A stretch of DNA of 55,834 bases from Candidatus Latescibacterota bacterium (GCA_016209865.1 JACQVL010000262.1:1-55834); one strand, 5' to 3'. Shown: positions 3,189 to 39,192, numbered from the stretch's first letter. Notes: generated by a model not told the origin, from the letters alone. A program made the numbers and translations.

Positions 3189-3804
3189 CCTGATGATCCA
3201 GATCAGCGCCCTGGACGGTCCGTTCGACTGGGTCGCCCTGTTCGGGAACGCGAGTCCGGTCGAGGTCGAGATCGGGTGCGGGAAGGGCCGGTTCCTGATC
3301 GCCTCCGCCATGCAGTATCCGGACGTGAACTATGTCGGGATCGAGCGAGCCGTCCGGTATTTCCGCATCGTCAAGGAACGGGTCGCCAGACGCGCCCTGA
3401 CGAACGTCCGGCTGCTCTGTGACGATGCCGGGTATTTCGTCCGGAAGTTCATTCCCGATGGGTCGATCGGGGCGTATCACGTCTACTTCCCGGACCCCTG
3501 GCCGAAGAAGCGGCATCGCAAGCGCCGGCTGTTCCAGGGAGACTTTCCCGCCCATCTTGCGCGGACCCTCTGCGCGGAGGGGACGATCGATCTCGCCACG
3601 GATTATGAGGAATATTTCAGCGAGATCGTCAGTCTGCTCGATGCCTGTCCCGGCCTACGTCGCATGTCCGGCCTGCCCGACCGGGTCCGTCTGCTGGGAA
3701 CCGGCGTGACGAACTTTGAGGTTAAGTATACAGCAGAAGGCCGTTTGATCTACCGGGCGGCGTTCCGGAAGACCGATGATGGATTCCCGCTTGCGCAGGA
3801 ATGA
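3181..3804 (+). CDS. trmB: tRNA (guanine46-N7)-methyltransferase
   Basis: 207 aa. Motifs VEIGCGKGRFL (SAM-binding) and YFPDPWPKKRHRKRR are hallmark TrmB motifs. The start is GTG 3181 or ATG 3193. The last 7 codons plus the stop are encoded by a repeat core (see findings). Confidence 0.9.
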   Translation: MADLMIQISALDGPFDWVALFGNASPVEVEIGCGKGRFLIASAMQYPDVNYVGIERAVRYFRIVKERVARRALTNVRLLCDDAGYFVRKFIPDGSIGAYHVYFPDPWPKKRHRKRRLFQGDFPAHLARTLCAEGTIDLATDYEEYFSEIVSLLDACPGLRRMSGLPDRVRLLGTGVTNFEVKYTAEGRLIYRAAFRKTDDGFPLAQE

Positions 3805-3877
3805 CGACCGTTCTTCTCGTCACTCGTCACTGGTCACTCGTCACTGATTCTTACCGACCACCGATCACCGACCACCG
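3781..3877. repeat. Composite element: inverted core hairpin + CGTCACT array + ACCGACC array
   Basis: Core (reverse orientation) GGATTCCCGCTTGCGCAGGAATGAC at 3781-3805. CTCGTCA CTCGTCA CTGGTCA CTCGTCA CTGA at 3817-3847. CCGACCA CCGATCA CCGACCA CCG at 3854-3877. Confidence 0.9.
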
Positions 3878-3881
3878 TACG

Positions 3882-5069
3882 ATGACTCCTCGTATCATCC
3901 TATACTCTGGCAAAGGCGGCGTCGGGAAGACGACGATCGCGGCGGCGACCGGCCTCCGGTGCGCGGACCTCGGCTATCGGACGCTCATCCTGTCGCTCGA
4001 CATCGCCCATAGCCTGGCCGACTCGTTCGACCTCGACGTCGGACTGCACGAGAAGAACCGTGGCCAGCCGGTGGCTGTCGGGGAACGGCTGTGGATCCAG
4101 GAGATCGACGTCCAGGAGGACGTGGAACGGTACTGGGGGGATGTATACAAATACCTCGCCCTCCTGCTCAATACCACCGGCTTAGACGAGATCATCGCCG
4201 CTGAGCTGGCGATCATCCCGGGGATGGAGGACGTTATCTGTCTGCTCTACATCAACCAGTACCTGACCGAACGCACCTACGACGTGCTCATCCTGGACTG
4301 CGCACCGACCGGGGAGTCGTTACGGTTTATCAGCATGCCCTCCACCCTCGAATGGTACATGGATAAACTCTTTCAACTGGAGCGCAACCTGGCCCGTGTG
4401 GTCCGGCCGATCGCGCGGGCGGTCACGAACGTCCCCCTGCCGGACGACAGTTACTTCCAGGCGCTCGCCGGCCTCTTCACGAAGCTCGAAGGGGTGGATA
4501 CGGTCTTGTTAGATAAAGAACGGACGTCTGTCCGGCTGGTGACGAACGCGGAGAAGATGGTGCTGCGGGAGACGCAGCGGGCGTTCATGTATTTCTGCCT
4601 GTACGGGATGGCGGTCGATTCGGTCATCGTCAACCGGCTCATTCCGGCCGGCGAGGGCGGGGAGTATTTCCAGAAGTGGATCACGACGCAGGAGCGCTAC
4701 CTGGCTCAACTCGAACAGTATTTCGATCCCGTGCCGATCGCCCGCGTGCAGATGTTCGATGACGAGATCATCGGGCTGGAGCGACTGCGACGGCTGTCGG
4801 AACAGCTCTACGGGACGGACGACCCGAGCCGGGTGTTCTACAGCGAGCGCCCGTACGAGTTCACGAAGACGGACGGCCAGTACGTGCTCTCCCTCAAACT
4901 CCCGTTTGTCACGAAAGAGCACGTCGATCTGTTCAAGGAAGAAGGCCAGCTCATCATCCGGATCGGCAGTTTCAAACGCCATGTCTTCCTGCCCCGTGCG
5001 GTCAGCCGTCACACCCCACGGGACGCACGGTTCGAGGGAGATCGGTTGTGTATCACGTTTGAACGATGA
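3882..5069 (+). CDS. ArsA/GET3-family P-loop ATPase with a C-terminal HSP20-like (ArsA_HSP20) domain
   Basis: Start trimmed to the ATG at 3882 (MTPRIILYSGKGGVGKTT, a deviant Walker A). The upstream part of the track ORF is translated heptamer repeat. Also has DCAPTGESLRF, and a C-terminal YVLSLKLPFVTKEHVDLFKEEGQLIIRIGSFKRHVFLP beta-sandwich-like segment. Confidence 0.85.
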   Translation: MTPRIILYSGKGGVGKTTIAAATGLRCADLGYRTLILSLDIAHSLADSFDLDVGLHEKNRGQPVAVGERLWIQEIDVQEDVERYWGDVYKYLALLLNTTGLDEIIAAELAIIPGMEDVICLLYINQYLTERTYDVLILDCAPTGESLRFISMPSTLEWYMDKLFQLERNLARVVRPIARAVTNVPLPDDSYFQALAGLFTKLEGVDTVLLDKERTSVRLVTNAEKMVLRETQRAFMYFCLYGMAVDSVIVNRLIPAGEGGEYFQKWITTQERYLAQLEQYFDPVPIARVQMFDDEIIGLERLRRLSEQLYGTDDPSRVFYSERPYEFTKTDGQYVLSLKLPFVTKEHVDLFKEEGQLIIRIGSFKRHVFLPRAVSRHTPRDARFEGDRLCITFER

Positions 5070-5083
5070 AGGAGGTGACGACG

Positions 5084-5353
5084 ATGGCTGAGAAGACCGA
5101 GACCACAACGAAGGAGACCGAACAGGCTGAAACCAGCCAGGAGTCGTGCGAGCGGCTCTTCACCCTCTCACAACTGCGCAAGCTGCTCCCGCCGGACGAG
5201 ACGCTCGTCGAGTTCGAGCGGCACATTATCCGGTCCCAGATCGAACTCCTGAGGGGGGTTCGGACGCTCGTGGACAGCTACGTGTCCCGGCTGGAACGCC
5301 GGGAGAAGCAGGAACAGCCGAAGCGGGTGAGCAAGATCGAGATCAAGGAATAG
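5084..5353 (+). CDS. Hypothetical small acidic / coiled-coil protein, 89 aa
   Basis: ATG at 5084 lies 8 nt after a perfect SD AAGGAGG (5069-5075), which sits on the stop codon of the ArsA-like gene. The track's start at 5066 is less likely. No family recognised. Confidence 0.55.
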   Translation: MAEKTETTTKETEQAETSQESCERLFTLSQLRKLLPPDETLVEFERHIIRSQIELLRGVRTLVDSYVSRLERREKQEQPKRVSKIEIKE

Positions 5354-5360
5354 AGAAAGC

Positions 5361-5423
5361 AAGGACAAAGGACGAAAGGGCCAAAAAGAACTTTTCGTAC
5401 TTCGTCCTTCGCTTTTCGTCCTT
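5361..5423. repeat. Heptamer-arm hairpin (AAGGACG class) between convergent gene ends; possible terminator
   Basis: AAGGACA AAGGACG AAAGG (5361-5379), an 11-nt loop region, then TTTTCGTACTTCGTCCTTCGCTTTTCGTCCTT (5392-5423) followed by ATTT. Confidence 0.8.
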
Positions 5424-5426
5424 ATT

Positions 5427-6398
5427 TCACGTCCGCACGTACTTCTGCAACACGCACCAATCGGCGGGGGCCCGGCCGCCGGGATAGGACACCGCCACCT
5501 CGCCCACGTACAGGTCGCCCCGCGAATCACACGCAATCCCGTGCGGGCTGAAGTATTGGCCTGCGCCCAACGGGTCGTGCTCCCCCCATTCGGCGAGAAC
5601 TTTCCCGGTCGCATCGCGCACCGTGATCCGCGCGGACGGCCGGCTGAGGTCCGGTTCGCCCATAAACACCCCGCCGACCTCGGCGACGTACAGATGTCCT
5701 TCGGCATCGAGGCACACATCGCACGGCCATCGCACGTCGCGCCACAGGACGATCAACTCACCCTGTGGGCTGAAGACCTGGATGCGGCAGTTCTGACGGT
5801 CACACACGTAGACCAGGCTGTGGCTGTCCACGCAGACATCGTGCGGGGTGACGAACTGGCCGGGACGATCGCCGGGCTCTCCCCACGACAGGACGAGCTG
5901 CCCGTCTGGCGTGAACCGGTGAATCCGGGCGTTGCCGTACCCGTCCGACACGTACAGGTCCCCGCCGGGCGCGACCGCCAACGCGGTCGGGTAATTGAAC
6001 GGCGGGCCGGAGCGGATCACCGACTCTGTCGTGGCGCCGTCATAGCCGGTGTCGGACGGATGATCGGCCGTCTGGATCGTCATCAGCAGCCGGCCGTCGG
6101 TCGTGAACTTGTGGACCGCGTGGCCGCAGTCATCCACGCAGTAGACCGCGTCATCAGGACTGATAAACAGGCCGTGCGGTCGTTTGAAGAACCCTTTGCC
6201 CCATGATCCTAAGAATCGACCCTCACGGTCGAAGACGGTCAGCGGATGCTCGCTCCGGCTGAACACATAGACCCGGTCCCGCGAATCTACCCCGACACCT
6301 GCGACCTCCACGAACGTCCAGCCGGCGGGGAGCTCTCCCCATCCTTTCGCTTCTTCGTAGATGAATGCACCCGATCCAACTCTTCGTGTGTGTGGCAT
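5427..6398 (-). CDS. NHL-repeat six-bladed beta-propeller protein (peptidyl-alpha-hydroxyglycine lyase-like)
   Basis: Start trimmed to the ATG at 6398, with SD AGGAG 8 nt upstream. Repeated blades of the form P.G..V...G.LYV.D..N.RI..F...G. Confidence 0.85.
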   Translation of the reverse strand: MPHTRRVGSGAFIYEEAKGWGELPAGWTFVEVAGVGVDSRDRVYVFSRSEHPLTVFDREGRFLGSWGKGFFKRPHGLFISPDDAVYCVDDCGHAVHKFTTDGRLLMTIQTADHPSDTGYDGATTESVIRSGPPFNYPTALAVAPGGDLYVSDGYGNARIHRFTPDGQLVLSWGEPGDRPGQFVTPHDVCVDSHSLVYVCDRQNCRIQVFSPQGELIVLWRDVRWPCDVCLDAEGHLYVAEVGGVFMGEPDLSRPSARITVRDATGKVLAEWGEHDPLGAGQYFSPHGIACDSRGDLYVGEVAVSYPGGRAPADWCVLQKYVRT

Positions 6399-6427
6399 GT
6401 GCGCTCCTGTTGTGCAATTTGGCCTCT

Positions 6428-6775
6428 TTACAACTCGAACCAACGCTGCAAAACGGATTTGAGATGGACGAACGCAGGATCAGTGCAACGTTCAACACTC
6501 TCGTGTTCCAGGTCATCTCGTGATAGGTGATCTTGCCCACACCCTTCACGGTCGCACATCACCAGGGCGTGGGCATATCGGTTGACGAAGGGTCGGAGGA
6601 AATCATGTCCTGCTAACACGCATCCAGGGTCACGAGCGGGATGTATAAAGATGTCATACGTGAATTGACGGATATCAAGCGCTTGGGATCGGGAGAACAA
6701 ACCTTTGACCGCAAACTCCATATTTTTATCGGAGACAAGCACAACGAGATCTTTCTCAAAGTCGTCGTCTTTCAT
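6428..6775 (-). CDS. Hypothetical 115-aa protein, partner of the upstream ATPase (unknown family)
   Basis: Its ATG overlaps the ATPase stop codon (ATGA at 6772-6775). Low-GC codon usage like the ATPase. Acidic motifs VVLVSDKNME, HPARDPG and VMCDREG. No HNH motif or clear Toprim E..DxD that I can recognise. Confidence 0.6.
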   Translation of the reverse strand: MKDDDFEKDLVVLVSDKNMEFAVKGLFSRSQALDIRQFTYDIFIHPARDPGCVLAGHDFLRPFVNRYAHALVMCDREGCGQDHLSRDDLEHESVERCTDPAFVHLKSVLQRWFEL

Positions 6776-7974
6776 CCCAAGACGCCCCCGGCAAAAAGCA
6801 CTCCCAAATTTGTCTCGCCGCGCCAGTCCTTGAGGGCTGGGTGTTCACTCCCTACCACGATGTCTGTCGCTCCATCCAGGGTTTTTGCGAAGCACAACAC
6901 CTGATTCGCCTCAGCCACACTCAGAATCACTGGAGAATGAGTGGCTAAGAGGATTTGTGCATGATAGACAGATGAGAGAGACTGAAACATCGTTTCCACG
7001 GCTCGTGGATGAATGCCGTTCTCGGGCTCTTCGATGAGGTAGACACCCTGAAAATCTGACAAATAGGCTGGGAGTGTCAATGCCAGGAGACGGAGGGTCC
7101 CATCTGAGACGACCCAGGAGGGAATCTCCCATCCTCCTTGATACCGGATGACCAGATACCGGTGTCGATCATCCGGTCGCTCGATCGTTCGGATATCTTC
7201 GATGTCAGGAAGAGCAGTCTGCACATGTGCGATCCACTCACGAAAGCGATCAGGAGCCTTTTTCTGGAGATTATCCAACACCCACGGTAGGTTGGAACCA
7301 TCCGGTCTGAATCCTCGCCCCTGTCCCGGTGGGCTGGCTTTCCGGATGAGCGCGCTATTCAGGACGAACTGTTGTACCCCTTCGGTCAGCAGTCCTTTTA
7401 ACCAGGTGGTGACTGGAAACTTAGACTCATCTTCGGGGAGGTTGCCCAGTGCAGATTTACGAGGACCGAGTTTGAACGCGGATGCCCAGCCCTTGCCTGG
7501 GAGGTGATACGCTTCAGAATAGTAGTTATCATTGCCGCCGGGAACCTTATGGACAACCGTGCGTAGTCCCCTGGCATTTTTGCGAGTCAGGATGGTATTC
7601 ACCTGATCGATTGGCATAGGAAACATGACACGTTGGATAGGGGACTGTGATTTCGCTCTCTTGAGCAAAGCTTTTTCAGCGAGAATACTGATCTCATCCG
7701 TTCCAGGAGCGAGTCCGATAGCGACTTCGTAGCGAATCGTATCATAGTGATGTTCTGTTAACAGCTTCCGACGATCCTCAGGGATCTGCGCTTCGATCGC
7801 AAGTTCAAACTTCCGTCCTGCCCGTTTCCAGACCAGATCTTGGAAATTGTGAGTCCGTTCACTCACTGCAACTTCAAGCCCATCGGATACTAACCTCCCA
7901 AGAAACGCCACGACATCCAAGAACGTCGTCTTCCCGCTGGCGTTGGGCCCCACAAGGACATGAAACGGTTCCAA
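6772..7974 (-). CDS. SMC/ABC-like AAA_21-type ATPase. The uninterrupted ORF is given here; the true 5' end is probably at 8030 with a 1-nt frameshift.
   Basis: Walker A GPNASGKTT, signature-like SDGTLRLLAL, Walker B VYLIEEPENGIHP and H-loop LLATHSP. The track start is a TTG. An ATG at 8028-8030 with SD GGAAGGGA opens MIAQIETLNFR.. in another frame (see finding). Confidence 0.85.
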   Translation of the reverse strand: MEPFHVLVGPNASGKTTFLDVVAFLGRLVSDGLEVAVSERTHNFQDLVWKRAGRKFELAIEAQIPEDRRKLLTEHHYDTIRYEVAIGLAPGTDEISILAEKALLKRAKSQSPIQRVMFPMPIDQVNTILTRKNARGLRTVVHKVPGGNDNYYSEAYHLPGKGWASAFKLGPRKSALGNLPEDESKFPVTTWLKGLLTEGVQQFVLNSALIRKASPPGQGRGFRPDGSNLPWVLDNLQKKAPDRFREWIAHVQTALPDIEDIRTIERPDDRHRYLVIRYQGGWEIPSWVVSDGTLRLLALTLPAYLSDFQGVYLIEEPENGIHPRAVETMFQSLSSVYHAQILLATHSPVILSVAEANQVLCFAKTLDGATDIVVGSEHPALKDWRGETNLGVLFAGGVLG

Positions 7975-8133
7975 AGGCTGGCGAATATAGTGAAAACACG
8001 GAAGTTCAACGTTTCAATCTGCGCAATCATGGTTCATTCCCTTCCTTCGGACAATATCCATGAATTCCATAAGCCACAGGTTCCAATTCATCAGTTTCCT
8101 CTCTGGAATCCAAGTCATCTGACTGCTGTCACG

Positions 8134-9105
8134 TTACCCCGAACTCGGCCAGACCTCCGGGTTGACGAGATGCGGCGGCCGTTCGCCGCGCAGCACCTGT
8201 AGGGCTTGCGTGATCGCCGTCCGCCATATCCGGTCTTTGCTCGCGCCCGTCACCCCCGCGATGTGCGGGGTGGCGACGACGTCGTCGCGGTGCAGAAGCG
8301 GGTGATCCGGGGGTGGAGGTTCCGGGTCGAACACATCCAGCCCGGCCCCTCGCAGATGACCCCGTTCGAGCGCGTCGAGCAACGCCGTCTCATCGACCAG
8401 CCCGCCTCGTGCGGTGTTGATGAGGATCGCGCCAGGCTTCATCCGGGCCAATCGTTCCGCATCGATCAGACGACGGGTCTCGGCCGTGAGCGGGAGGTGG
8501 AGGGACACCACATCCGCCGCGCGTAAGACCTCTTCGAGGGTGGGCGCGAGGTCGATGCCGAGTTCCATCCCTCGATCAGCAGACACATACGGGTCGTACG
8601 CCATGACGGTCATCCCCAGCGCCCGGCCGATCGTGGCGACGTGCCCACCGATCCGGCCGACGCCGATCAGGCCGAGCCGCAGGCCATGTACTTCCAGTCC
8701 GTGGTGCTCGTTGAAATAATCCCTCGTCCCGCCACGCCGGAGTAGCCCTTCGATGCGCTTGATCTGTTTGGCCACGGCGAGCATCAGGGTGACGGCGTGC
8801 TCCGCCGCCGAGATCGTCGGGCCGTCGGGGGCGTTGCATACCGCGATCCTGCGCGCCGTGGCGTCGGGGATGGAGATGTTGTCGACGCCGATGCCCGTGC
8901 GGGAGATGACCCGCAGGCCGGGCGCCTGATCCATCAACGCCCCGTCGTACCGGATGCGGGCTGAGGCGATGATCGCCTGGGCGTCTGGCAGGGCGATCAG
9001 CGGGGTGTCGGGCGTGGCGCTGGCCGGGCCGAGGGCGACGGCGACCCCGTCGAGCAGCGGGACGTACTGAGGGGACAACGCCCGTTCGAACCAGATGCGG
9101 AACAT
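8134..9105 (-). CDS. D-isomer-specific 2-hydroxyacid dehydrogenase (phosphoglycerate dehydrogenase-like)
   Basis: Start trimmed to the ATG at 9105 (SD GGAGG). NAD-binding GLIGVGRIGGHVA, and a catalytic-region ARGGLVDE..GAGLDVF..EP....PHIAG pattern. Confidence 0.85.
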   Translation of the reverse strand: MFRIWFERALSPQYVPLLDGVAVALGPASATPDTPLIALPDAQAIIASARIRYDGALMDQAPGLRVISRTGIGVDNISIPDATARRIAVCNAPDGPTISAAEHAVTLMLAVAKQIKRIEGLLRRGGTRDYFNEHHGLEVHGLRLGLIGVGRIGGHVATIGRALGMTVMAYDPYVSADRGMELGIDLAPTLEEVLRAADVVSLHLPLTAETRRLIDAERLARMKPGAILINTARGGLVDETALLDALERGHLRGAGLDVFDPEPPPPDHPLLHRDDVVATPHIAGVTGASKDRIWRTAITQALQVLRGERPPHLVNPEVWPSSG

Positions 9106-9142
9106 GAAACCTCCTCCCTCCTCTCCCTTCCCCACCGGGCAG

Positions 9143-9240
9143 GTGGGCAATGGGCAGTGGGCAATCGAAGCCGTTCCCTCGTCTACTGCCCATCTGCCTG
9201 GCGGGGTCGGGTGGCTGTGCGGGGACTGCCTACTGCCCGG
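9143..9240. repeat. Heptamer-arm element (GGGCAGT / ACTGCCC class)
   Basis: Left arm GTGGGCA ATGGGCA GTGGGCA AT (9143-9165). Inverted arms ACTGCCCATCTGCC (9185-9198) and ACTGCCTACTGCCC (9225-9238). Intergenic. Confidence 0.8.
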
Positions 9241-9264
9241 TGGAGCGGGGAGCGGTGGGGCTCA

Positions 9265-10461
9265 TCACACTGTCTGCAACGCCGCCTCGATGTCCGCCAG
9301 AATGTCCTCCACCCCTTCGATGCCGATGGACATCCGCACTAAGCCGTCCCCGATGCCGATCCGCTGGCGCTGCTCCGGCGCGAGGCTGCGATGGGAGGAG
9401 GTGGCGGGATGGAGGACGAGGGTTTCCACGTCGCCCAGGGTGGTGGCGGCCTGGCACAGCCGCAAGCCGTTGATGAACCGCCAGGCCGTCTCCATCGTCC
9501 CATCGCCGAGGTCGAACGCGACCACTCCCCCGAACCCGGCGCCCCCGAACAGGCGGACGGCCCGGTCGTGGTCGGGGTGGCTCGACAGGCCGGGATAATC
9601 GACCCGTGTCACCTTCGGGTGAGCCTCCAAAAACCGGGCGACGGTCATCGCGTTCTCGCAGTGCTGCCGCATCCGCAATGGGAACGTCTTGATGCCCCGG
9701 AGGAGCAGCCACGCCTCGAACGGGCTGAGCACCCCGCCCAAGTTGCGTCGGAGTTTGTCCACCCGGTCGTGGAACGCCGGAGCGACGGCCACCCCGCAGG
9801 TGATGTCCCCGTGCCCGCCTAAGTACTTCGTCCCGCTGTGCACCACACAGTCCACCCCCCACTCCAGCGGGCGGGCCAGGTAGGGAGTGGCGAACGTGTG
9901 GTCGATGACCACCCGCGCGCCGTAGCGATGGGAGAGTTCGACGATGCGGGGGACGTCGATCACCCGGAGCAACGGGTTGGACATCGTCTCGATGTACGTT
10001 GCGGCGACCGCCCCCTTCGCCAGCGTCGCCTCGACCTGATCGAGGTGGTCCGCTTCGACGAACACCGTCTCCACGCCCAGGCCGGCGAGGTCGTTGACGA
10101 GCAGGGCGTACGTCCCGCCGTACAGGTCGCGCGACGCCATGACCGTCCGGCCTGCGCCCACGCCCACCCCTAACAGTCCGGCCAGGATAGCGGCCATCCC
10201 GGAGCCGAACGCGACGGCGGTCTCCGCGCCCTCTAAGTCGGCGACGACCGCTTCCGCCGCGACGACGGTGGGGTTGGCGTAGCGGCTGTAGACGTAGCCG
10301 GTCTCCTTGCCCTCGAACACCCGGACTGCATCCTCGATACGGTCGTAGGCAAAGCTGGATGTCGGGTAGATCGGCGCTGACGTCGGCTGGTGGGAGAAGC
10401 GTCCGGCGTGTTCGGGCGGATGGATGGCGCGTGTGGTGAGCGTGTACGGGCGAGCAGGCAT
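9265..10461 (-). CDS. Cys/Met-metabolism PLP-dependent enzyme (O-acetylhomoserine sulfhydrylase / cystathionine gamma-synthase-lyase family)
   Basis: 398 aa. Motifs PIY.TSSF, YSRY.NPT and HSGTKYLGGHGD (PLP lysine). The C-terminal LVRMSIGIE is typical of the family. Confidence 0.9.
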   Translation of the reverse strand: MPARPYTLTTRAIHPPEHAGRFSHQPTSAPIYPTSSFAYDRIEDAVRVFEGKETGYVYSRYANPTVVAAEAVVADLEGAETAVAFGSGMAAILAGLLGVGVGAGRTVMASRDLYGGTYALLVNDLAGLGVETVFVEADHLDQVEATLAKGAVAATYIETMSNPLLRVIDVPRIVELSHRYGARVVIDHTFATPYLARPLEWGVDCVVHSGTKYLGGHGDITCGVAVAPAFHDRVDKLRRNLGGVLSPFEAWLLLRGIKTFPLRMRQHCENAMTVARFLEAHPKVTRVDYPGLSSHPDHDRAVRLFGGAGFGGVVAFDLGDGTMETAWRFINGLRLCQAATTLGDVETLVLHPATSSHRSLAPEQRQRIGIGDGLVRMSIGIEGVEDILADIEAALQTV

Positions 10462-10478
10462 ACGGGACTCCTTCAGAA

Positions 10479-10517
10479 AGGACGAAGGATAAAGGGCGAA
10501 GGACGAACGAGAAGGAA
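10479..10517. repeat. Single-arm heptamer array (AAGGACG class)
   Basis: AAGGACG AAGGATA AAGGGCG AAGGACG AACGAGA. On the minus-strand mRNA it reads as a CGTCCTT array that ends 17 nt before the start codon at 10461. Confidence 0.8.
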
Positions 10518-10545
10518 TAAAAACGTATTCTCAGGCATTTGTCAA
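10517..10545 (-). promoter_or_regulatory. Possible sigma70-like promoter for the 9265-10461 gene
   Basis: On the minus strand: TTGACA (rc of 10540-10545), 17 nt, then TTTTAT (rc of 10517-10522). This would place the heptamer array in the 5'UTR. Confidence 0.35.
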
Positions 10546-10653
10546 GGGACATGCACGTGAAACGAACATCTCTTGCATAAGACCGGGCGATGTATTATTT
10601 TGAGATAAGAAACTGGCTGAAGAAGTGCCATAAGTTACTGGCATGGCCTCTGC

Positions 10654-10768
10654 GGCCCTCACCCCCGGCCCCTCTCCCACGGCGGGGAGAGGGGAAACGA
10701 GCGTTCTTGTGAAGGACTCCCCCTTTCTCGCCCCTTGTGGGAGAGAAAGGGGGGGGATAGTGAGGGCC
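10654..10768. repeat. Nested palindromic element (two G/C-rich hairpins enclosed by an outer stem)
   Basis: Outer stem GGCCCTCAC (10654-10662) / GTGAGGGCC (10760-10768). Hairpin 1 is CCCCTCTCCC (10669-10678) / GGGGAGAGGGG (10684-10694). Hairpin 2 is CCCCCTTTCTC (10719-10729) / GAGAGAAAGGGGG (10741-10753). Confidence 0.8.
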
Positions 10769-10793
10769 ATCAGGGCGACCCAACCCGGAGGAC

Positions 10794-13565: not shown

Positions 13566-13572
13566 CTCTCCT

Positions 13573-18807: not shown

Positions 18808-18823
18808 TCTCCACTCCCCTGTC

Positions 18824-18845
18824 GTCCCCCCGCATGCGGGGGGAC
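18824..18845. repeat. Perfect 22-nt palindrome between convergent gene ends
   Basis: GTCCCCCCGCATGCGGGGGGAC is exactly self-complementary. There is no flanking T-run on either strand. Confidence 0.9.
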
Positions 18846-18855
18846 CAGAGGGGGG

Positions 18856-21886: not shown

Positions 21887-21902
21887 GGGGACTCCTTTGG
21901 TT

Positions 21903-24679
<2,777 letters not shown>

Positions 24680-27506: not shown

Positions 27507-27525
27507 ACGGCCTGCTCCCTCAAGT

Positions 27526-27553
27526 AATCGGTGGTCGGTGGTCGGTAGTCGGT
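27526..27553. repeat. Single-arm heptamer array (GGTCGGT class)
   Basis: AATCGGT GGTCGGT GGTCGGT AGTCGGT. It lies 20 nt upstream of the secDF start on the other strand, so it falls in the probable secDF 5'UTR. Confidence 0.85.
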
Positions 27554-27571
27554 AAAGACCGCAATAACATG

Positions 27572-28781: not shown

Positions 28782-28879
28782 GGGGTGATAGCCTCCTCTA
28801 CAAAAGAAGTGAGAGGAAATGGGAAAAAGAAATTGGGAAATGAGGTGATACTCTCCTCTCCGACAGAGGCGAATTGGCC

Positions 28880-30229: not shown

Positions 30230-30253
30230 GCGACCTGTTTCCTTCTTCGTGCC

Positions 30254-32125: not shown

Positions 32126-32212
32126 CGGCGCACCCCTCTATGAGATGGGAAAGATTTTTTCCAATATACACAAGAATTTTGGCGGGCGCAAGACGGGAGT
32201 ACAGATTCGCGC

Positions 32213-32242
32213 TTGACTTTCCCCGGCTGTGGGTATTATATA
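32213..32242 (+). promoter_or_regulatory. Candidate sigma70-like promoter for the murG-like operon
   Basis: TTGACT (32213-32218), then 18 nt, then TATATA (32237-32242). An alternative is TATTAT with only 15 nt of spacing. Confidence 0.35.
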
Positions 32243-32307
32243 CGAAAAGACGTAGGGTGACTTCCTTCCTCTCATCACCGACCCTCTCCAGACACGGCGT
32301 GGACGCG

Positions 32308-34401
32308 ATGACCTACCTCTTGACTGGCGGCGGAACGGGCGGGCACGTTTATCCAGGGTTGGCGATCGCGGACGAGATCCGGCGGCGGCAGCCAGATGCC
32401 CGGATCGTCTACGTCGGCGCACGCGGCAAGATCGAGGCGCAACTCGTCCCGCAGCGCGGCTATCCGATCCGCCTCGTCTGGGCGCGCGGCCTGCCGCGAC
32501 AGAAGCGGCCGCTCGCCCTGCTCTCGTTCCTCCTCGTCACCACTCTCGGTGTCCTCCAGAGCGTCGTCATCCTGCTCGCTACCCGTCCCCGCGTCGTCGT
32601 GGCGACGGGCGGCTACGCGAGCGGCCCGGTGATGCTCGCCCTGGCCCTCCTCCGGCGTCTCCATCTCTCTTCCGCCAGGACGTTCATCCACGAGCAGAAC
32701 GTTGTCCCCGGCCTGGTGAACCGTCTGGCGGGCCGGATGGCGGACGTGATCGGCGTCTCATTCAGCGAGAGCATCCGGCGTTTCGACGCCTCGAAGGTCG
32801 TCCGGGTGGGCTACCCGGTGCGCCGGGAGATCGCCTCCGTCACCCGGGACGAGGCCCGGCAGGCGTTAGGTCTCCCTGGCGACGCGCAGGTGGTGTTCGC
32901 GTTCGGCGGCTCGCAGGGCTCCCGCACGATCAACCGGGCGATCGTCGATGCGCTGCCCGCCTTGCTGCCGCGCGAACGGTTGTACCTGATTCATGCGATC
33001 GGTCTGTTTAAGGGCACACAGTACCATGCGGCACACGATACGGCGGCGCGGATGGTAGGCGCCGGCCTTCGTCCGGAGGACCTGCCGCGCTACCGGCAAG
33101 TCGAGTATGTGTACGATATCCAGACGGTCTACGCGGCGAGCGACCTGGTCATCTGTCGAGCGGGCGCGGCGACCCTGAACGAGGTCTGCGCCTGCGGGCT
33201 TCCGTCGATCATCATCCCGATCTCCAACACGCCGGGAGACCATCAGGCGCTGAACGCGAAGACCCTCGAAACCGCCGGAGCGGCGCGTGTCCTCTACGAA
33301 GAAGCGATCCTTGAGGACGGACGCATCGTCGGAGCGGTCAACGGGCGCCGGCTGGCCCAGGCGATCCTGGGGTTGCTCGATGCGCCCGTGCAACTGGCGG
33401 AGATGGCCGCACGGGCACGCACGATGTTCGACCGGGATGTGCTCGACCGGATCATGGCGTGTGTCGATCGTCTGACGGCATCGAGTCCAGGACAGGCTGA
33501 GGCGGGGTACGCACACGGCAAGACCGAGGATGACGGAAAAGCCGCTCTCAATGCCATTCCAGAAGCGCCCGTCCAGCCGTCCCTCGCCGACGTGGAGGAG
33601 ACGGCGCAGTTGTCGCCGTTCCAGATGCTCCAGTTCGTCCAGAAGCATCCGGGCGGCCAGCTCGCGCAGGTGATCGACCTCGACTACCTGAAGTACAAAG
33701 TGGACGGCTATCTGATCGCACCGGCCTGGCAGGTGCGGAACGTCGGGGTCAAGCTCGTCGGCTTGTTAGGCTACCGGGAGAAACTCCCCCTCCTCCTTTT
33801 CATGCTCCAGGACCGCACGCCAGTCCCATGGCTGCACCGGCTGTTCGGCGGGGATTATCAGCAGGTCGGGTTCATCCGCCGGAATATCGTGCAGACGCTC
33901 ATCCAGGTCGGTGAGTACACCCCGGAGGTCCGAACCGCCCTGCTCGCCGGGCTGGCGGACCCTTACTACGAAGTCCGGTCGTGGTCGGCCCGAGCGTTCG
34001 GCCGGCTTTCCCCGCTCGCCGGGCCGGATGACGAGGTCGAGCGGCGGCTGATCGAGCGGCTCCACGACCCGTCGTTCGAGGCGGTCGTCGAAGCCATCGC
34101 GGCGCTGGGCAAAGTCGGAGGAGCCCCAACCCATGCGCTGCTCCGGGAATTCTACGCCGAGGCCAACTCGAAAATCCGTGAAGCCGTCATCCGGACGTTG
34201 ATCGACCTGATGGATCGTGGCCTCATCCCCGACCTCGACGCGCTGGCGGTTGAGGTGCAGGATATGCTGGTCACGTGTGAAGACTTTCAACCGACGTTCC
34301 CCATCAAACGGGCCCTCAACAACCTGGGGACAGCCCTGAAAGAACGCCAGCAGGCGGTGCCATGCTCTACCACCTCAGCACCTATCTCTACCACACCGTA
34401 G
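32308..34401 (+). CDS. murG: MurG-like UDP-GlcNAc glycosyltransferase fused to a ~330-aa C-terminal HEAT-repeat domain
   Basis: Start trimmed to the ATG at 32308 (MTYLLTGGGTGGHVYPGLAIADE, the MurG G-loop). GT28 C-domain motif RAGAATLNE. The C-terminal half carries repeated D..YEVRS.SARAFGRL / DPSFEAVVEAIAALGKVG HEAT-like units. Confidence 0.85.
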   Translation: MTYLLTGGGTGGHVYPGLAIADEIRRRQPDARIVYVGARGKIEAQLVPQRGYPIRLVWARGLPRQKRPLALLSFLLVTTLGVLQSVVILLATRPRVVVATGGYASGPVMLALALLRRLHLSSARTFIHEQNVVPGLVNRLAGRMADVIGVSFSESIRRFDASKVVRVGYPVRREIASVTRDEARQALGLPGDAQVVFAFGGSQGSRTINRAIVDALPALLPRERLYLIHAIGLFKGTQYHAAHDTAARMVGAGLRPEDLPRYRQVEYVYDIQTVYAASDLVICRAGAATLNEVCACGLPSIIIPISNTPGDHQALNAKTLETAGAARVLYEEAILEDGRIVGAVNGRRLAQAILGLLDAPVQLAEMAARARTMFDRDVLDRIMACVDRLTASSPGQAEAGYAHGKTEDDGKAALNAIPEAPVQPSLADVEETAQLSPFQMLQFVQKHPGGQLAQVIDLDYLKYKVDGYLIAPAWQVRNVGVKLVGLLGYREKLPLLLFMLQDRTPVPWLHRLFGGDYQQVGFIRRNIVQTLIQVGEYTPEVRTALLAGLADPYYEVRSWSARAFGRLSPLAGPDDEVERRLIERLHDPSFEAVVEAIAALGKVGGAPTHALLREFYAEANSKIREAVIRTLIDLMDRGLIPDLDALAVEVQDMLVTCEDFQPTFPIKRALNNLGTALKERQQAVPCSTTSAPISTTP

Positions 34402-35471
34402 CCGCGCTCTCCTTCCTCCGCCTGTTCGGCTACCTGAGCTTCCGGGCGATCGGGGCGGCACTGACCGCGTTTGCGGTGACCGTCCTGTTCGGGGAGCGGA
34501 TGATTCATTTTCTGTACCTCAAGCGGATTCGGGACGTCCCGCGCGAGTACGTCACGATGTCCGCCGCCGACAAGTCTGGGACGCCCACGATGGGGGGTCT
34601 GCTGATCATCTTCGCCGTCGTAACGAGCATGGCGCTCTGGTGCGACCTGCTCAGCCGGTTCGCGCAGATCGTCTTCTTCGCGTTCGCCTGGTTCACCGTC
34701 TTAGGCGGGATGGACGATTACCTGAAGCTCAAACACGCCCACAGCGACCGGGGGCTGTCCCAGGCGACAAAATTTTTCTGCCAGGTGGCGTTTGGACTGA
34801 TCCTCGGCGCCGTGTTCTTGATGCCCGGCGTATCCCCGGTCGCCCCCACGATCGCGTCCAAGCTGTACCTGCCGTTCATCAAGGCGCCGATCCTCGACTT
34901 AGGCTGGTGGTACTTGCCGTTCATCGCGTTCGTCGTCGTCGCCATCGCCAACTCGGTTAACTTCGCGGATGGCCTCGACGGGTTAGCCATCGTGCCGGTG
35001 TCGTTCACGATCGCCGTCTACGGGGTGTTCGCGTACGTCATCGGGAACACCATCTATTCCAGCTACCTCCAGTTCTTCTACCTCTCCGGCAGCGGGGAGC
35101 TGACGGTCATCTGCGCCGCCATCTTCGGGGCCAGCCTCGGCTTCCTCTGGTACAACGCCTACCCCGCCCAGGTGTTCATGGGGGATGTCGGGTCGCTCAC
35201 CTTAGGCGGCATCATCGGGACGCTCGCCGTGCTCCTCAAGCAGGAATTCCTGTTCCTGATCGTCGGCGGGGTGTTCGTGATCGAAGCGTTCTCCGTCCTC
35301 ATCCAGGAGAAGATCGGAGTCAACTGGCTCGGCCGAAGGATGTTCTACCGCGCGCCCATCCATCAGACGTTCCAGCACCGCGGCCTGGCCGAGACGAAAG
35401 TCGTCGTCCGGTTCTGGATCATCGCCGGGATTCTGGCCCTCATCGGGCTGTCGACGTTGAAGATTCGCTGA
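34362..35471 (+). CDS. mraY: Phospho-N-acetylmuramoyl-pentapeptide transferase
   Basis: 369 aa. Motifs KSGTPTMGG, NSVNFADGLDGLA and GDVGS. Overlaps the murG-HEAT ORF by 40 nt. Confidence 0.95.
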   Translation: MLYHLSTYLYHTVAALSFLRLFGYLSFRAIGAALTAFAVTVLFGERMIHFLYLKRIRDVPREYVTMSAADKSGTPTMGGLLIIFAVVTSMALWCDLLSRFAQIVFFAFAWFTVLGGMDDYLKLKHAHSDRGLSQATKFFCQVAFGLILGAVFLMPGVSPVAPTIASKLYLPFIKAPILDLGWWYLPFIAFVVVAIANSVNFADGLDGLAIVPVSFTIAVYGVFAYVIGNTIYSSYLQFFYLSGSGELTVICAAIFGASLGFLWYNAYPAQVFMGDVGSLTLGGIIGTLAVLLKQEFLFLIVGGVFVIEAFSVLIQEKIGVNWLGRRMFYRAPIHQTFQHRGLAETKVVVRFWIIAGILALIGLSTLKIR

Positions 35472-35484
35472 CAGGAGACCACGT

Positions 35485-36579
35485 ATGCTGCACTTTGAGT
35501 ACTCCAAATGGGTGCCTGAGCCGGACGAACAGAAGAACAAGCTCGATGAGTTGATGAACATCTTCAGCTACATCCTCATCCAGACGAACGGGAATGTGGA
35601 AGAAGCGTTAGACTGGATGAAATTCTTAGACAACCGGTACGGTATCTTCGGGGACGAGACGAATTTCGAGGAATTCCTGCAGGAACTCGAACGGCAGGGG
35701 TACATCGAACGGCAGAAGACGGTCTACGTCCTGACGGATAAAGGGGGACGGCGGATCCGGGAGGATTCTCTGAAGCACATCTTCAGCTCCCTCAAGAAGG
35801 GCCTCTCCGGGAGTCACGACACCCCGTACGAGGGGGAAGGCGTCGACCGGACGAGCGAGACGAGGCCGTACCGGTTTGGCGACCCGGCGACCAACATCGA
35901 CTTCACGTCAACCCTCAGCAACACCATCCGGCGCGACGGGTTCGACTTGCGGCTTCAGGAAGAAGACTTCGAGGTGTATGAGGTCGAGCACACGACCGCC
36001 TGCGCGACGGTGATGCTGCTCGACATCAGTCACAGCATGATCCTGTACGGGGAGGACCGGATCTCGCCCGCCAAGCGGGTGGCGTTAGCGTTAGCGGAAT
36101 TGATCCTCCGGAAGTACCCGAAGGACCAGCTCGAGCTCGTCCTGTTCGGCGACCAGGCGAAGCGGGTCAACGTCGAGGACCTGCCGTTCGTCTCCGTCGG
36201 CCCGTACCACACGAACACGAAAGCGGCGCTGGGGCTGGCCCGGAACCTCCTCCGCCGGACGAGGAACGTCAACAAGCAGGTCTTCATGATCACAGACGGC
36301 AAGCCGTCCGCCATCTATGAGAAGAACGGCCGCCTGTACCGCAATTCGTTCGGCCTCGACCCGAAGATCGTCAACCGGACGCTCGACGAGGCAGTAGCCT
36401 GCCGGCGGGAAAAGATCACGATCTGCACGTTTATGGTGGCGCAGGACCCGTACTTGATGAGTTTTGTGCAGAAGTTGACGGAGATGAACCGGGGGCGGGC
36501 GTACTTCTCGTCGCTCGACAACTTGGGCGAGTACATCTTGGTCGACTACGTGCGGAACCGGAAGCGGCGGGTGAGTTGA
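35485..36579 (+). CDS. VWA-domain protein (CoxE/MoxR-partner-like)
   Basis: 364 aa. MIDAS-like LLDISHSM, plus ITDGKPS. No AAA+ partner gene in the window. Confidence 0.8.
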   Translation: MLHFEYSKWVPEPDEQKNKLDELMNIFSYILIQTNGNVEEALDWMKFLDNRYGIFGDETNFEEFLQELERQGYIERQKTVYVLTDKGGRRIREDSLKHIFSSLKKGLSGSHDTPYEGEGVDRTSETRPYRFGDPATNIDFTSTLSNTIRRDGFDLRLQEEDFEVYEVEHTTACATVMLLDISHSMILYGEDRISPAKRVALALAELILRKYPKDQLELVLFGDQAKRVNVEDLPFVSVGPYHTNTKAALGLARNLLRRTRNVNKQVFMITDGKPSAIYEKNGRLYRNSFGLDPKIVNRTLDEAVACRREKITICTFMVAQDPYLMSFVQKLTEMNRGRAYFSSLDNLGEYILVDYVRNRKRRVS

Positions 36580-36590
36580 GGGGAAGAAAT

Positions 36591-36805
36591 CCGGGGTACG
36601 GGGTTCGGGATTCGGGGAGAAAACATCGGGATACGGGGTACGGGATACGGGGTACGGGAAAGCATACAGAAGGACACCCACAAGGGGTAGCCTTATACTC
36701 ATGCTGTCATTCCCGCGCAAGCGGGAATCCATTTCCCGGACCCCGAATCCCGTACCCCGTCTTGTCTCTTTTCCCGGACCCCGTACCCCGAATCCCGTAC
36801 CCCGG
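36591..36805. repeat. Largest composite heptamer-arm element (CGGGGTA / TACCCCG class) with a central core hairpin
   Basis: Left arms at 36591-36662 (CGGGGTA CGGGGTT CGGGATT ... CGGGATA CGGGGTA x2). Core GTCATTCCCGCGCAAGCGGGAATCC at 36706-36730. Right arms at 36735-36805 (CCCGGAC CCCGAAT CCCGTAC ...). Followed by GGGTTTTTCTC. Confidence 0.9.
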
Positions 36806-36812
36806 GTTTTTC

Positions 36813-37550
36813 TCATCCAACCTGATCGAGGATCGCCCGGAGATCGCGCCGCACGCACGTGAAGATCGGGGTGTCCCGCAGCGTATACCGGCTGCCCTCG
36901 GTCTCCCGCAGCTCCATGACGAGGTCGAGGAAATCATCCGGCTTGTCCGTCTCGAACGCGACGACGAACTCCTGGTCGTCCAGGCCGAACGAGTACGTCG
37001 TGTTGAGCTTGACGGAGGCGTACCGGTGGCCGACCTCGATGTGCTCGTTCATCATCCCCTGGCGGGTGGCTTTCGACAGCCGGTACCAGTCCCGCGTCTT
37101 GACGAACGGGTAGACGAACAGGTACTTGGCCTCTCCGGGGATGATGTGCAGCCGGGTGCCTTCCTGGCCTTCGTGGTGGTGTCTGTCCACGTAGATCGAT
37201 CGTTTCGTCATCGACAGGAGTGAGTACGGGGTGTCCAGGTATTTCCCCAGGCCGGTCCGGAGGAGCTGCGCGGTCATCTCCTGGAACGACTCGATCTCGT
37301 ACCCGATCCGCCAGAGCATGAAATCGGTGTCGGCGCGGAGTCCGACCGTCGAGTACGGCAGGACGATCATCTGCGGGAGAAACTGCTCGACCACGCCCGC
37401 GAATTCCCGCTTCCCCTCGTCCTGCTCGGACGCGGGCAGCCGGCGCCAGGCGGAATCGGCCTTGTAGAACGCGAAATTGACGTACTGCCGCCGCGCCGGC
37501 TCAGCCGGTTCCGTCCCCCGGCCTCGGCCAGATCGTTCATGGCTACTCAT
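36813..37550 (-). CDS. Chlorite-dismutase-family protein (HemQ/ChdC-like)
   Basis: 245 aa. Overall pattern YVNFAFYK....W..L, FLYPFVK..DWY and a C-terminal ferredoxin-like repeat, typical of the Cld/HemQ family. Confidence 0.85.
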   Translation of the reverse strand: MSSHERSGRGRGTEPAEPARRQYVNFAFYKADSAWRRLPASEQDEGKREFAGVVEQFLPQMIVLPYSTVGLRADTDFMLWRIGYEIESFQEMTAQLLRTGLGKYLDTPYSLLSMTKRSIYVDRHHHEGQEGTRLHIIPGEAKYLFVYPFVKTRDWYRLSKATRQGMMNEHIEVGHRYASVKLNTTYSFGLDDQEFVVAFETDKPDDFLDLVMELRETEGSRYTLRDTPIFTCVRRDLRAILDQVG

Positions 37551-37614
37551 CGGATGTCTCCATCTATAGTTTTTCAGAAAAAGAAATAAATCGTCTCAGC
37601 CTTGCACCTCACCC

Positions 37615-38787
37615 CTACGCCCCGGTCTTGGCGTTGAGGACTTCCTTGAGCACCTCCAGAAAGACTTCATTCTCCCGGTGCGTACCGACCGACACCCGGA
37701 TGAAATTGGGCATTCCGAACGCACGACGGATCAAGATTTTTCGGGCTTCCAGTTGATCGACGAGCGGCTTCGTATCGCGTCCGACGTCCGCGATCACGAA
37801 GATCGTCTGCGTCTTCACCGGCTTCAGACCAAGCCGGGCCAGCTCGGTGTACAGGTATTCTTTCTCCGTGCGGACATGCGTTCGCACGCGCTGAACATGC
37901 TCATCATCATCGAACGCGGCGATCGCCGCCGCATCGCCGATGATGGTCCGGCCCAGCCAGCCGAGATAGAACGGTTTGACCCGTTCGATCAGACTCGGAT
38001 GACCGATGCCGTACCCGATGCGCATCCCGCCCAGGCCGTAAGCCTTGGACATCGTTTTGGTGACGAACAGGTTGCGTTTCGTCTTCGTCAGCGGGATGAC
38101 GCTGGGATACTGCTCATCATCCACGAAATCCAGGTACGCTTCATCGACGCAGACGATGATATTCTCCGGCACGCTGTCGATGAATTTCCGCAGTGCGTCC
38201 GCCGGGAGAAGCTGGCCGGTCGGGTTGTTCGGGTTGGTGATGGAGACGATCTTCGTGTCGGACGTGATCGCCTTCCGGACGACGTCGAGGTCGATCTGGA
38301 GGTCTTTCGTCAGTTTCACCCGGACGACCGGTCTGCCGATATCCTCCGCCATTCCTGAAATAGCTCCGTACCCCGGCTCCGGTTCGACGACTCCTCCGCC
38401 GTTGACGATCGCCGTCAGGGTGATGGCGTTCAGGATCTCAGAGGAGCCGACGCCGTTGGCCACCATATCCGCCGTGACCCCGTGGTGCCGGGCGATGGCC
38501 TCGTGCAGCACCGGCTCGCGGGCCGGGTACCGGTTGAGGGCGAACAGTTTTTTGGCCGCCGCTTCGACCGCGTGCGGGGAGGGGCCCAGCGGGTTCTCGT
38601 TGATCGACAGTTGGACGAGCCCAGGGTCTTCCAATCCTGCGCCGTACACCAGTCGCCCTTTCGGGCCGCCGACCATCGCGGCGGCGGTCTTCCACAAGGA
38701 CGCGCTCGCCAGGGTGGTCAGCCCCCCGGCGACGGCGGTCTGGATGAATCGACGACGGGATACCGCGATAGGCGATGGAGTACTCAT
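37615..38787 (-). CDS. Class I/II (HisC-like) PLP aminotransferase with an N-terminal twin-arginine signal
   Basis: 390 aa. Tat motif SRRRFIQTAVAGGLTTLASASLW..AAA. PLP-lysine region TMSKAYGLGGMRIGYG. SD AAGGAGG lies 6 nt before the ATG. Confidence 0.88.
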   Translation of the reverse strand: MSTPSPIAVSRRRFIQTAVAGGLTTLASASLWKTAAAMVGGPKGRLVYGAGLEDPGLVQLSINENPLGPSPHAVEAAAKKLFALNRYPAREPVLHEAIARHHGVTADMVANGVGSSEILNAITLTAIVNGGGVVEPEPGYGAISGMAEDIGRPVVRVKLTKDLQIDLDVVRKAITSDTKIVSITNPNNPTGQLLPADALRKFIDSVPENIIVCVDEAYLDFVDDEQYPSVIPLTKTKRNLFVTKTMSKAYGLGGMRIGYGIGHPSLIERVKPFYLGWLGRTIIGDAAAIAAFDDDEHVQRVRTHVRTEKEYLYTELARLGLKPVKTQTIFVIADVGRDTKPLVDQLEARKILIRRAFGMPNFIRVSVGTHRENEVFLEVLKEVLNAKTGA

Positions 38788-38806
38788 GATGTCCTCCTTG
38801 ATAAAG

Positions 38807-38905
38807 CAAGGATGAAGGGGTAAGGACGAAGGACGAACAGTAAGGATTCATGAAACGTGTCATTCCCACGCAAGCGGGAATCCATCGCTTTGGCCTTCGT
38901 CCTTG
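38807..38905. repeat. Composite heptamer-arm element (AAGGACG class) with core hairpin
   Basis: Left arm CAAGGAT GAAGGGG TAAGGAC GAAGGAC (38807-38847). Core GTCATTCCCACGCAAGCGGGAATCC (38859-38883). Short right arm CCTTCGTCCTTG (38894-38905). Confidence 0.9.
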
Positions 38906-38979
38906 TAGTGGTGAATGTAATCATACTTGTCGAAATTACAAGGATTTTCTCTTTATAGTACACCGGGCAGACAAATTCC

Positions 38980-39008
38980 TTGACAGAAAGCCGATATTTT
39001 TTTATGAT
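38980..39008 (+). promoter_or_regulatory. Strong sigma70-like promoter reading into the next repeat element and the 39215 gene
   Basis: TTGACA (38980-38985), exactly 17 nt, then TATGAT (39003-39008), in an AT-rich context. Confidence 0.55.
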
Positions 39009-39041
39009 AAGAATATTCCAGCCGGTGTATCCATGTTAAAC

Positions 39042-39192
39042 AAGGGACGAAGTCGTTCAGAAGTAAGGACGAAGGAGTAAGGACGAAGGACGAAATTGAA
39101 AGGATGAAAGACAACTCTCTTGTTTCTGTCATTCCCGCGCAAGCGGGAATCCATCATCTTTTTCGTCCTTTGTCCTTCATACTTCGTCCTTG
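39042..39192. repeat. Composite heptamer-arm element (AAGGACG class) with core hairpin, located in a 5'UTR
   Basis: Left arm 39042-39110 (TAAGGAC GAAGGAG TAAGGAC GAAGGAC ...). Core GTCATTCCCGCGCAAGCGGGAATCC at 39128-39152. Right arm CTTTTTCGTCCTTTGTCCTTCATACTTCGTCCTTG at 39158-39192. Confidence 0.9.

Follow-up and report, generated by a model that had tools for sequence, protein, structure and literature searches.

NTS/Ssn-related-motif hairpins set among heptamer arrays in a 56-kb segment assigned to Nitrospirota

The window analyzed here is a whole stretch of 55,834 nucleotides deposited under Candidatus Latescibacterota bacterium (GCA_016209865.1 JACQVL010000262.1:1-55834), which we place in Nitrospirota, and it carries six copies of a short hairpin core. 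The original prediction took this core to be a GNRA-loop element under selection as a folded nucleic acid, probably widespread and "essentially uncharacterised." The question that the locus raises is what this hairpin is and in which form, RNA or DNA, it is recognized. On sequence grounds, we assign all six copies to the Neisseria Transformation Sequence (NTS) or Ssn-related motif (SRM) family, which is the same as dRS3 of Neisseria and the CGTC-1 family of REP repeats. The element itself is already known, as a described family with a partner protein and biochemistry; it is the host and the setting that are unusual here. The label "uncharacterised" has to be dropped, as NTS/SRM, dRS3, and CGTC-1 REP are all in the literature, the partner and its biochemistry since 2025 (PMC11893778, PMC3733652).

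The six copies and their family

NTS has the sequence CGTCATTCCCGCGMAVGCGGGAATCYRG and contains the older dRS3 repeat, ATTCCC-N8-GGGAAT; the same study defined the degenerate SRM, which is present in many bacteria, and gives the loop of NTS/SRM as GMAV (Chenal et al., Nat Commun 2025, PMC11893778). The CGTC-1 REP family, represented by dRS3 in Neisseria and RPE-6 in Rickettsia, has an 8-bp stem beginning with AT, a 4-nt loop, a CGTC or TGTC tag, a CCA tail, and frequent inverted dimers (Di Nocera et al., BMC Genomics 2013, PMC3733652). The window core equals the NTS consensus save for the outermost flank bases: copies 4 and 6 (numbered along the window, Table 1) are identical to NTS in the core, and the remaining copies carry one to three substitutions. 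GTC stands directly 5' of the palindrome and C directly 3' in all six copies, the full tag being CGTC in two, TGTC in three, and GGTC in one. The layout of an 8-bp stem and a 4-nt loop that defines CGTC-1 is likewise found in all six, the CCA tail in five (as CCAT), and the strict dRS3 pattern in four.

A search of the window with the core query GTCATTCCCGCGCAAGCGGGAATCC, allowing up to three mismatches, gave exactly six matches with 0-3 mismatches each, and none in 100 dinucleotide-preserving shuffles; the positions and strands are those first reported, and the stem variants are as they were then described. The published degenerate SRM pattern picks out copies 4 and 6, where chance alone would yield 0.8 matches per window, and also gives one chance-level match at 47596-47624. 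Because this pattern catches only two of the six copies, a covariance model was built instead. It draws on 74 distinct copies from other genomes and from this window, so that the window copies match partly by construction, and it recovers exactly the six copies at 37-46 bits (E<=1e-8). The conserved extent is the core plus the 3' CCA(T) tail, and the upstream flanks are unrelated. When folded as single-stranded DNA (ssDNA), four of the six copies form the full 8-bp/4-nt hairpin at -5.8 to -9.0 kcal/mol. Copies 2 and 3 make up an inverted dimer (21957-22032) with tags outward, tails inward, and a 26-nt spacer.

The next-best covariance match after the six copies is a hairpin at 18820-18848, TGTCGTCCCCCCGCATGCGGGGGGACCAG, which folds at -13.8 kcal/mol (z -3.5). 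Its tag and tail are those of the SRM family, but the stem is a longer, different one; the hairpin resembles GTCGTCCCCGC...GCGGGGACCCAG variants from other genomes and may be a second SRM subtype.

For annotation, the copies should be labeled as NTS/SRM (CGTC-1 REP) repeats, not as a new RNA motif. The peptide strings that had been read from the core (VIPAQAGIH, SFPRKWES, and MDSRLRGND) are correct translations of it, and peptides of this kind (VIPAQAGIH, SFPRKRES, and MDSRLRGND) are translation artefacts of the repeat.

Spread, pairing, and the link to the Ssn nuclease

That the element is widespread was borne out. Two scans, both of which give lower bounds, located the degenerate core at more than 120 loci and exact matches to the 27-mer shared by copies 4 and 6 at more than 118, with hosts in Proteobacteria, Chloroflexota, Acidobacteriota, Planctomycetota, Gemmatimonadota, Bacteroidota, candidate-phyla-radiation groups, and others, cultured isolates included. 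Pairing holds in 96% of stem cells across the 74 distinct copies, and changes on both sides occur at six of the eight pairs. The number of double-change cells (54) was reached by none of 500 shuffles, and in slid controls the pairing collapses to 19-50%. The stem pairing is maintained and the compensatory changes are real, as had been proposed. Covariation of this kind cannot distinguish RNA from ssDNA, and hairpin-templated mutation could contribute to the compensatory changes. G.T and A.C mismatches in the stem are equally common (13 vs 18) and give no signal of strand asymmetry. A loop census of 113 copies that were not preselected by the search pattern returned GAAA in 36, GAAG in 23, GCAG in nine, GAAC in seven, and GCAA in six, the rest being varied. 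Together, the non-GNRA loops (GAAG, GCAG, GAAC, and others) outnumber GNRA, which fits the published GMAV (PMC11893778), and the retention of a GNRA loop is rejected by this census as a property of the family. In many loci of other genomes single upstream half-sites are common; two loci (L037, 6494-6550; L105, 74-128 and 260-314) have, immediately before a complete copy, a tandem repeat of 21-nt period made of the motif's 5' half (GTCATTCCCGC and about 10 nt more).

The published partner is SsnA, a small GIY-YIG protein that binds the motif only as ssDNA of the tagged strand and cuts a few nucleotides upstream, and that is inactive on the RNA and double-stranded DNA forms of the motif. Cutting needs the three bases before the palindrome and binding needs the C after it, while changes to the loop, even its removal, are tolerated; strand-specific ssDNA binding and cleavage have been demonstrated for the Neisseria and Wolbachia Ssn homologues (PMC11893778). 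In 120 loci inspected for GIY-YIG open reading frames (ORFs) from the first set of more than 120, an ssn homologue (Pfam GIY-YIG) is bracketed by the motif in three (L053, L097, and L098). Searching with the Ssn protein gave more than 591 relatives, of which the best 80 loci, from many phyla, were analyzed: the covariance model has matches in 78 of these best 80 loci, 285 matches in 244 kb, and the usual layout is one copy just upstream of the gene on the plus strand and one just downstream on the minus strand. The protein partner sought by the original prediction is thus present elsewhere, bracketed by the motif in 78 of the best 80 ssn loci; the window has no ssn. The original prediction would have been refuted if the copies proved to be ends of a known insertion sequence (IS) or miniature inverted-repeat transposable element with an identifiable transposase. 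This comes close to what is seen: the motif typically brackets the ssn nuclease gene in an IS-like NTS-ssn-NTS unit. No transposase is found among the 50 window ORFs scanned.

Two ssn genes on one Thermodesulfobacteriota chromosome (L272 and L280) are surrounded by long regular arrays of the motif with a spacing of about 112-136 nt, which alternate with a weaker reverse-strand hairpin and are reminiscent of the Neisseria mosaic clusters. Another ssn homologue with flanking motif matches (L237) comes from a contig of 4 kb whose bin is that of a Halobacteria archaeon; mis-binning or transfer could account for this.

Each copy is a short DNA palindrome, made asymmetric by (C/T)GTC as its 5' tag and CCA as its 3' tail. 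Drawing on published work in other bacteria, we propose that the tagged strand, when single-stranded, would fold into an 8-bp/4-nt hairpin and that a small single-domain GIY-YIG nuclease (Ssn, cd10448) would bind this hairpin sequence-specifically and cut a few nucleotides upstream. The element would spread with the ssn gene as an IS-like NTS-ssn-NTS unit, and this spread would leave behind, in intergenic DNA, single copies as well as inverted dimers that lack the gene. NTS and Ssn of Neisseria limit the integration of incoming motif-bearing ssDNA. The long heptamer hairpins described below may favor extrusion of the motif as ssDNA, or they may merely mark tolerated, hairpin-prone intergenic landing sites. 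In this framework, the window copies are probably recognized and cleaved as ssDNA by an Ssn-type nuclease encoded elsewhere in the genome. The exact canonical form of the family extends to a groundwater Nitrospirota genome, which predicts an Ssn nuclease there, and we infer that this genome encodes such a cognate Ssn and that the nuclease acts on the window copies.

Several observations weigh against this assignment of function. No Nitrospirota ssn is among the best 80 of the more than 591 loci, and no ssn or GIY-YIG gene is found in the window (hmmsearch E>2; Pfam on 50 ORFs). Other Nitrospirota loci have few NTS copies, 2 in 478 kb versus 6 in 56 kb in the window. The strict SRM pattern is present in only two of the six copies, as noted above, and the copies at 22008 and 38859 are structurally degenerate as ssDNA (-2.7 and -3.6 kcal/mol, z about 0).

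With respect to genes, five of the copies are intergenic and one overlaps the 3' end of trmB. Copies 2 and 3 follow ligA and precede the next, codirectional gene, copy 4 is in the spacer of convergent genes, and copies 5 and 6 are in a divergent region. The last eight codons of trmB (…DGFPLAQE) and its TGA stop fall inside copy 1 (3778-3804), which appears to have replaced the native trmB 3' end. A strong sigma-70-like promoter match (TTGACA-17-TATGAT, 11/12) at 38980-39008 is upstream of the array-NTS-array module of copy 6 and of the next gene, and the module would therefore sit in the 5' leader of that gene.

Some of these settings are what would be expected of a structured RNA motif, that is, a GNRA hairpin selected in transcripts as an mRNA 3'-end stabilizer, processing site, or terminator. 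Roles in mRNA stabilization, processing, or termination have long been proposed for REP elements. Copy 1 at the trmB stop and copies 2 and 3 between codirectional genes are likely to be transcribed, as is copy 6 between the promoter-like site and the next start codon; the palindrome can fold as RNA in both orientations, and Di Nocera et al. make a case for the transcription of many REPs (PMC3733652). The orientation of the copies to genes is, however, inconsistent (convergent, divergent, and codirectional are all seen), and the RNA form is neither bound nor cut by SsnA (PMC11893778). Across the family the loop is free of a GNRA constraint, and G.U-type mismatches are not in excess over A.C-type ones. 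An intrinsic terminator is excluded because no T-tract follows the hairpin, the tails being CCATC or CCATT, and no terminator-like site coincides with copies 4-6. The Rfam scan matched no family at gathering thresholds; at permissive thresholds, it gave only sub-threshold generic long-hairpin (miRNA-precursor) matches around the heptamer palindromes. No RNA sequencing runs containing window sequence were found. We consider an RNA motif to be improbable, and hold the same opinion of an RNA-level role that transcribed copies would have as a side effect. From the claim of selection on a folded nucleic acid, the maintained pairing stands, and the RNA reading that it implied is disfavored, given that SsnA acts on ssDNA only.

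The copies might instead be used chiefly by IS110-family or phage recombinases, as sites of attachment or as targets. Such a role is reported for Neisseria dRS3, and both dRS3 and REPs do act as insertion targets in the literature (PMC11893778, PMC3733652). We judge this very unlikely: IS110, integrase, and prophage genes are absent beside all six copies among the Pfam-scanned ORFs, and a target-site role leaves the origin of the motif and its conservation across phyla unexplained. Mobilization as a classical REP/REPIN by a RAYT (an IS200/IS605-like Y1 transposase) would account for the comparable size, the intergenic placement, and the REPIN-like inverted dimer at 21957-22032. It is even less likely than a target-site role, as the tag here is CGTC/TGTC where GTAG would be expected, no transposase dedicated to CGTC REPs emerged from the study of Di Nocera et al. 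(PMC3733652), and the gene that the hairpins bracket elsewhere encodes a GIY-YIG nuclease; the Pfam scan of 50 window ORFs returned no transposase, RAYT/Y1, IS110 recombinase, integrase, or GIY-YIG protein.

Heptamer arrays and strain variation

The setting of the NTS copies in the window is that of heptamer arrays, which were detected with TRF. All six copies lie within 100 nt of 7-nt tandem-repeat arrays, and five of them are in the loop between a left array and its right-hand reverse complement. Copy 1 merely abuts an array, whose inverted partner is 1.1 kb away. This inverted repeat (2623-2680 / 3810-3875; 28 nt at 100% and 23 nt at 91% complementarity) brackets a gene for a 118-aa hypothetical protein and trmB, with copy 1 just inside its right arm. 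The array units vary by locus (GGGGTCA, GGGRTAC, AAGGACG, and AGTGACG/GGTGGTC). The arrays fold into long hairpins (z -3.6 to -10.7), on which NTS is a small side hairpin near the tip, nearer the 3' arm.

Table 1. Coordinates of NTS copies and heptamer arrays in the window
Feature	Position	Strand	Remarks
NTS copy 1	3781..3805	-	GTCATTCCTGCGCAAGCGGGAATCC; tag CGTC, tail CCAT; 43.2 bits; -5.8 kcal/mol; overlaps last 8 codons and stop of trmB
NTS copy 2	21957..21981	+	left half of inverted dimer; 38.2 bits; -7.6 kcal/mol
NTS copy 3	22008..22032	-	right half of dimer; GAAA loop; one mismatch and one wobble; 37.5 bits; -2.7 kcal/mol, z 0.2
NTS copy 4	36706..36732 (core 36706-36730)	+	canonical; between convergent genes; 45.9 bits; -9.0 kcal/mol
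NTS copy 5	38859..38885 (core 38859-38883)	+	A.C stem mismatch, only 6 bp form; 39.5 bits; divergent intergenic region
NTS copy 6	39128..39154 (core 39128-39152)	+	canonical; 46.5 bits; -9.0 kcal/mol
Candidate seventh, diverged SRM-like hairpin TGTCGTCCCCCCGCATGCGGGGGGACCAG	18820..18848	+	13.5 bits at 18818-18850, E 0.14, borderline; convergent genes
Heptamer arrays CTCGTCA, ACCGACC	3806..3877		abut copy 1; inverted partner 2623-2680
Left heptamer array GGGGTCA	21899..21918		encloses NTS dimer; whole structure -45.4 kcal/mol, z -5.4
Right heptamer array TGACCCC x4.6	22053..22084		complement of left array
Left heptamer arrays, GGGGTAC/GGGATAC types, outer and inner	36592..36659		upstream of copy 4; -78.8 kcal/mol, z -10.7
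Right heptamer arrays, CCCGTAC/CCCGGAC types	36734..36805		complementary to left arrays
Left AAGGACG-type array	38808..38837		upstream of copy 5; short right arm about 38892-38905; z -3.6
Composite module: AAGGACG arrays, spacer, NTS copy 6, TTCGTCC arrays	39060..39199		-38.0 kcal/mol, z -9.0
Heptamer arrays without NTS	2623-2675, 5361-5423, 9137-9165, 10478-10516, 27524-27554, 41907-41997, 44071-44145, 47810-47824, 52710-52793, 53656-53749		intergenic

Most of the NTS-free arrays are paired in inverted orientation and so fold as long hairpins (z -4.4 to -7.6), and several of them occupy spacers of the ribosomal-protein/adk/map operon. Array density in the window is 0.47 per kb versus about 0.11 per kb in comparison loci, or about four times higher. 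All four NTS-bearing intergenic regions are among the approximately 14 of approximately 31 that bear arrays, an association of marginal significance (P about 0.03). A general association of NTS with heptamers is unsupported outside this genome, where array-adjacent copies number 16 of 234 and 6 of 247. The same architecture is seen in a few genomes, namely, Dokdonella (L052), Saccharibacteria (L046), Terriglobia (L313), and Pirellulales (L351), and other Nitrospira loci also carry heptameric intergenic repeats. In a Parcubacteria locus (L012, 4460-4892), inverted heptamer arrays CAGGGTG / CCCTGTA bracket one small ORF of about 120 aa; this locus also bears NTS copies that adjoin other heptamer arrays.

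Groundwater metagenome contigs were aligned to the window at 36.4-39.4 kb. Depth reaches about 7000 at the NTS copies versus about 12 beside them, and contigs stop at the motif, which is what a hyper-repeated element should produce. In a related strain (run X5, several percent divergent), the whole 140-nt array-NTS-array module at 39060-39199 is replaced by "CAG" (joint 39059->39200), and 36617-36770, comprising the inner arrays and NTS, is replaced by a 32-nt spacer, with the outer arrays retained. With two absences of whole units in this strain, the composite behaves as an insertion/deletion unit; the direction may be insertion here or deletion of the palindrome in the run X5 strain. The related strain is also one without the module that would occupy the 5' leader described above. 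"Empty-site" alleles at 21.9-22.05 kb are ambiguous, with only 20-22 nt on one side of the joint in the contigs that span it, because the TGACCCC array is itself hyper-repeated in metagenomes. At this array (22044-22111), metagenome depth is 1000-4000 versus about 10 in the flanks, and heptamer arrays are therefore hyper-repeated in this community, like NTS.

The motif breaks metagenome assemblies and so is a likely point of chimeric joins. That the window is itself an assembly artefact, a contig joined chimerically via a repeat common to many metagenome organisms, is nonetheless extremely improbable, for although the source metagenomes contain the motif in great excess and interrupt their short-read contigs at it, depths agree across the copies (10.3-12.8 in run X1 at 36.4-39.4 kb; 7.8-12 in run X2 around 22 kb), base composition is uniform along the window, and the motif is found in finished genomes and isolates too.

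The strain polymorphism raises the speculative possibility, unlikely in our estimation, that in this Nitrospirota lineage NTS moves or persists not alone but as a composite module of heptamer array, NTS, and inverted array, about 140-155 nt long, that is gained or lost whole between close strains and that at one site lies inside the loop of an older heptamer palindrome. If true, such a module would imply a link between Ssn-type nicking and either the birth of heptamer arrays, by slippage or repair beside the nick, or the targeting of extruded hairpin loops. The strain-variable nesting in heptamer palindromes might also inform how hairpin elements choose or create insertion sites.

Host, neighboring genes, and comparison with known systems

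The chlorite-dismutase-like protein of the window has its best matches, at up to 71% identity, in Nitrospiraceae genomes, and the window DNA is present in groundwater metagenomes. Housekeeping functions make up the 50 ORFs that were scanned with Pfam, among them trmB, an ArsA-like ATPase, ligA, secDF, hflX, rpoA, secY, adk, map, and a ribosomal-protein operon, which runs on the minus strand from 39.7 kb onwards. The window is a core chromosome segment of a Nitrospirota bacterium. A low-GC islet at 6428-7974 on the minus strand (54% vs about 62%) encodes an AAA_21 ATPase that matches HEC-01A / mad3 / AbiLi defense-system models (E 1e-40); next comes an ORF of 115 aa that matches mad4 weakly, and the two are a candidate two-gene defense module.

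Among known systems, NTS/SRM is the closest. The sequence is near-identical, GTCATTCCCGCG-C/A-A-A-GCGGGAATCC, with both the 5' GTC and the 3' C present, and the 8-bp/4-nt hairpin, the intergenic placement, the inverted dimers, and the presence across phyla are the same. The window copies differ in that T or G replaces the C before GTC in four of them and CCAT replaces CYRG; the window is 56 kb without ssn, from a Nitrospirota host; and its copies are tied to heptamer arrays, five of them inside array palindromes, whereas NTS occurs in NIME-like clusters. With CGTC-1 REP/dRS3, the window copies share the CGTC/TGTC tag, the 8-bp stem beginning with AT, the 4-nt loop, the CCA tail, and dimers, but Nitrospirota is absent from the five phyla in which CGTC repeats were found in that study (PMC3733652). 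CGTC-1 dimers of Halothiobacillus neapolitanus were already noted there to lie inside palindromic "target" sequences (PMC3733652), while here the palindromes around the copies consist of heptamer tandem arrays, with a unit that changes by locus. REP/REPIN-RAYT systems are likewise built of short palindromes with a tag, which form inverted doublets and bracket the single-copy gene to which they belong; they differ in having a GTAG tag and an HUH Y1 transposase where NTS has a (C/T)GTC tag and a GIY-YIG nuclease.

Intergenic heptameric repeats have been described as GGGAATC in Xanthomonas and as GGGGAYT (STRR-like) in Nostoc (Rehm et al., PLoS One 2015, PMC4692102). The arrays in the window resemble these in their 7-nt units, their intergenic location, and their frequent convergent inverted pairs able to form stem-loops (PMC4692102). 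In contrast to them, many units occur here in one genome (AAGGACG, AGTGACG, GGTGGTC, GGGGTCA, GGGRTAC, and GGGCAGT), and the arrays enclose NTS hairpins and even occupy spacers of the ribosomal-protein operon. This strain-variable nesting of NTS in heptamer palindromes is the sole part of our findings that goes beyond the literature, and it hints weakly at a mechanistic link between the two.

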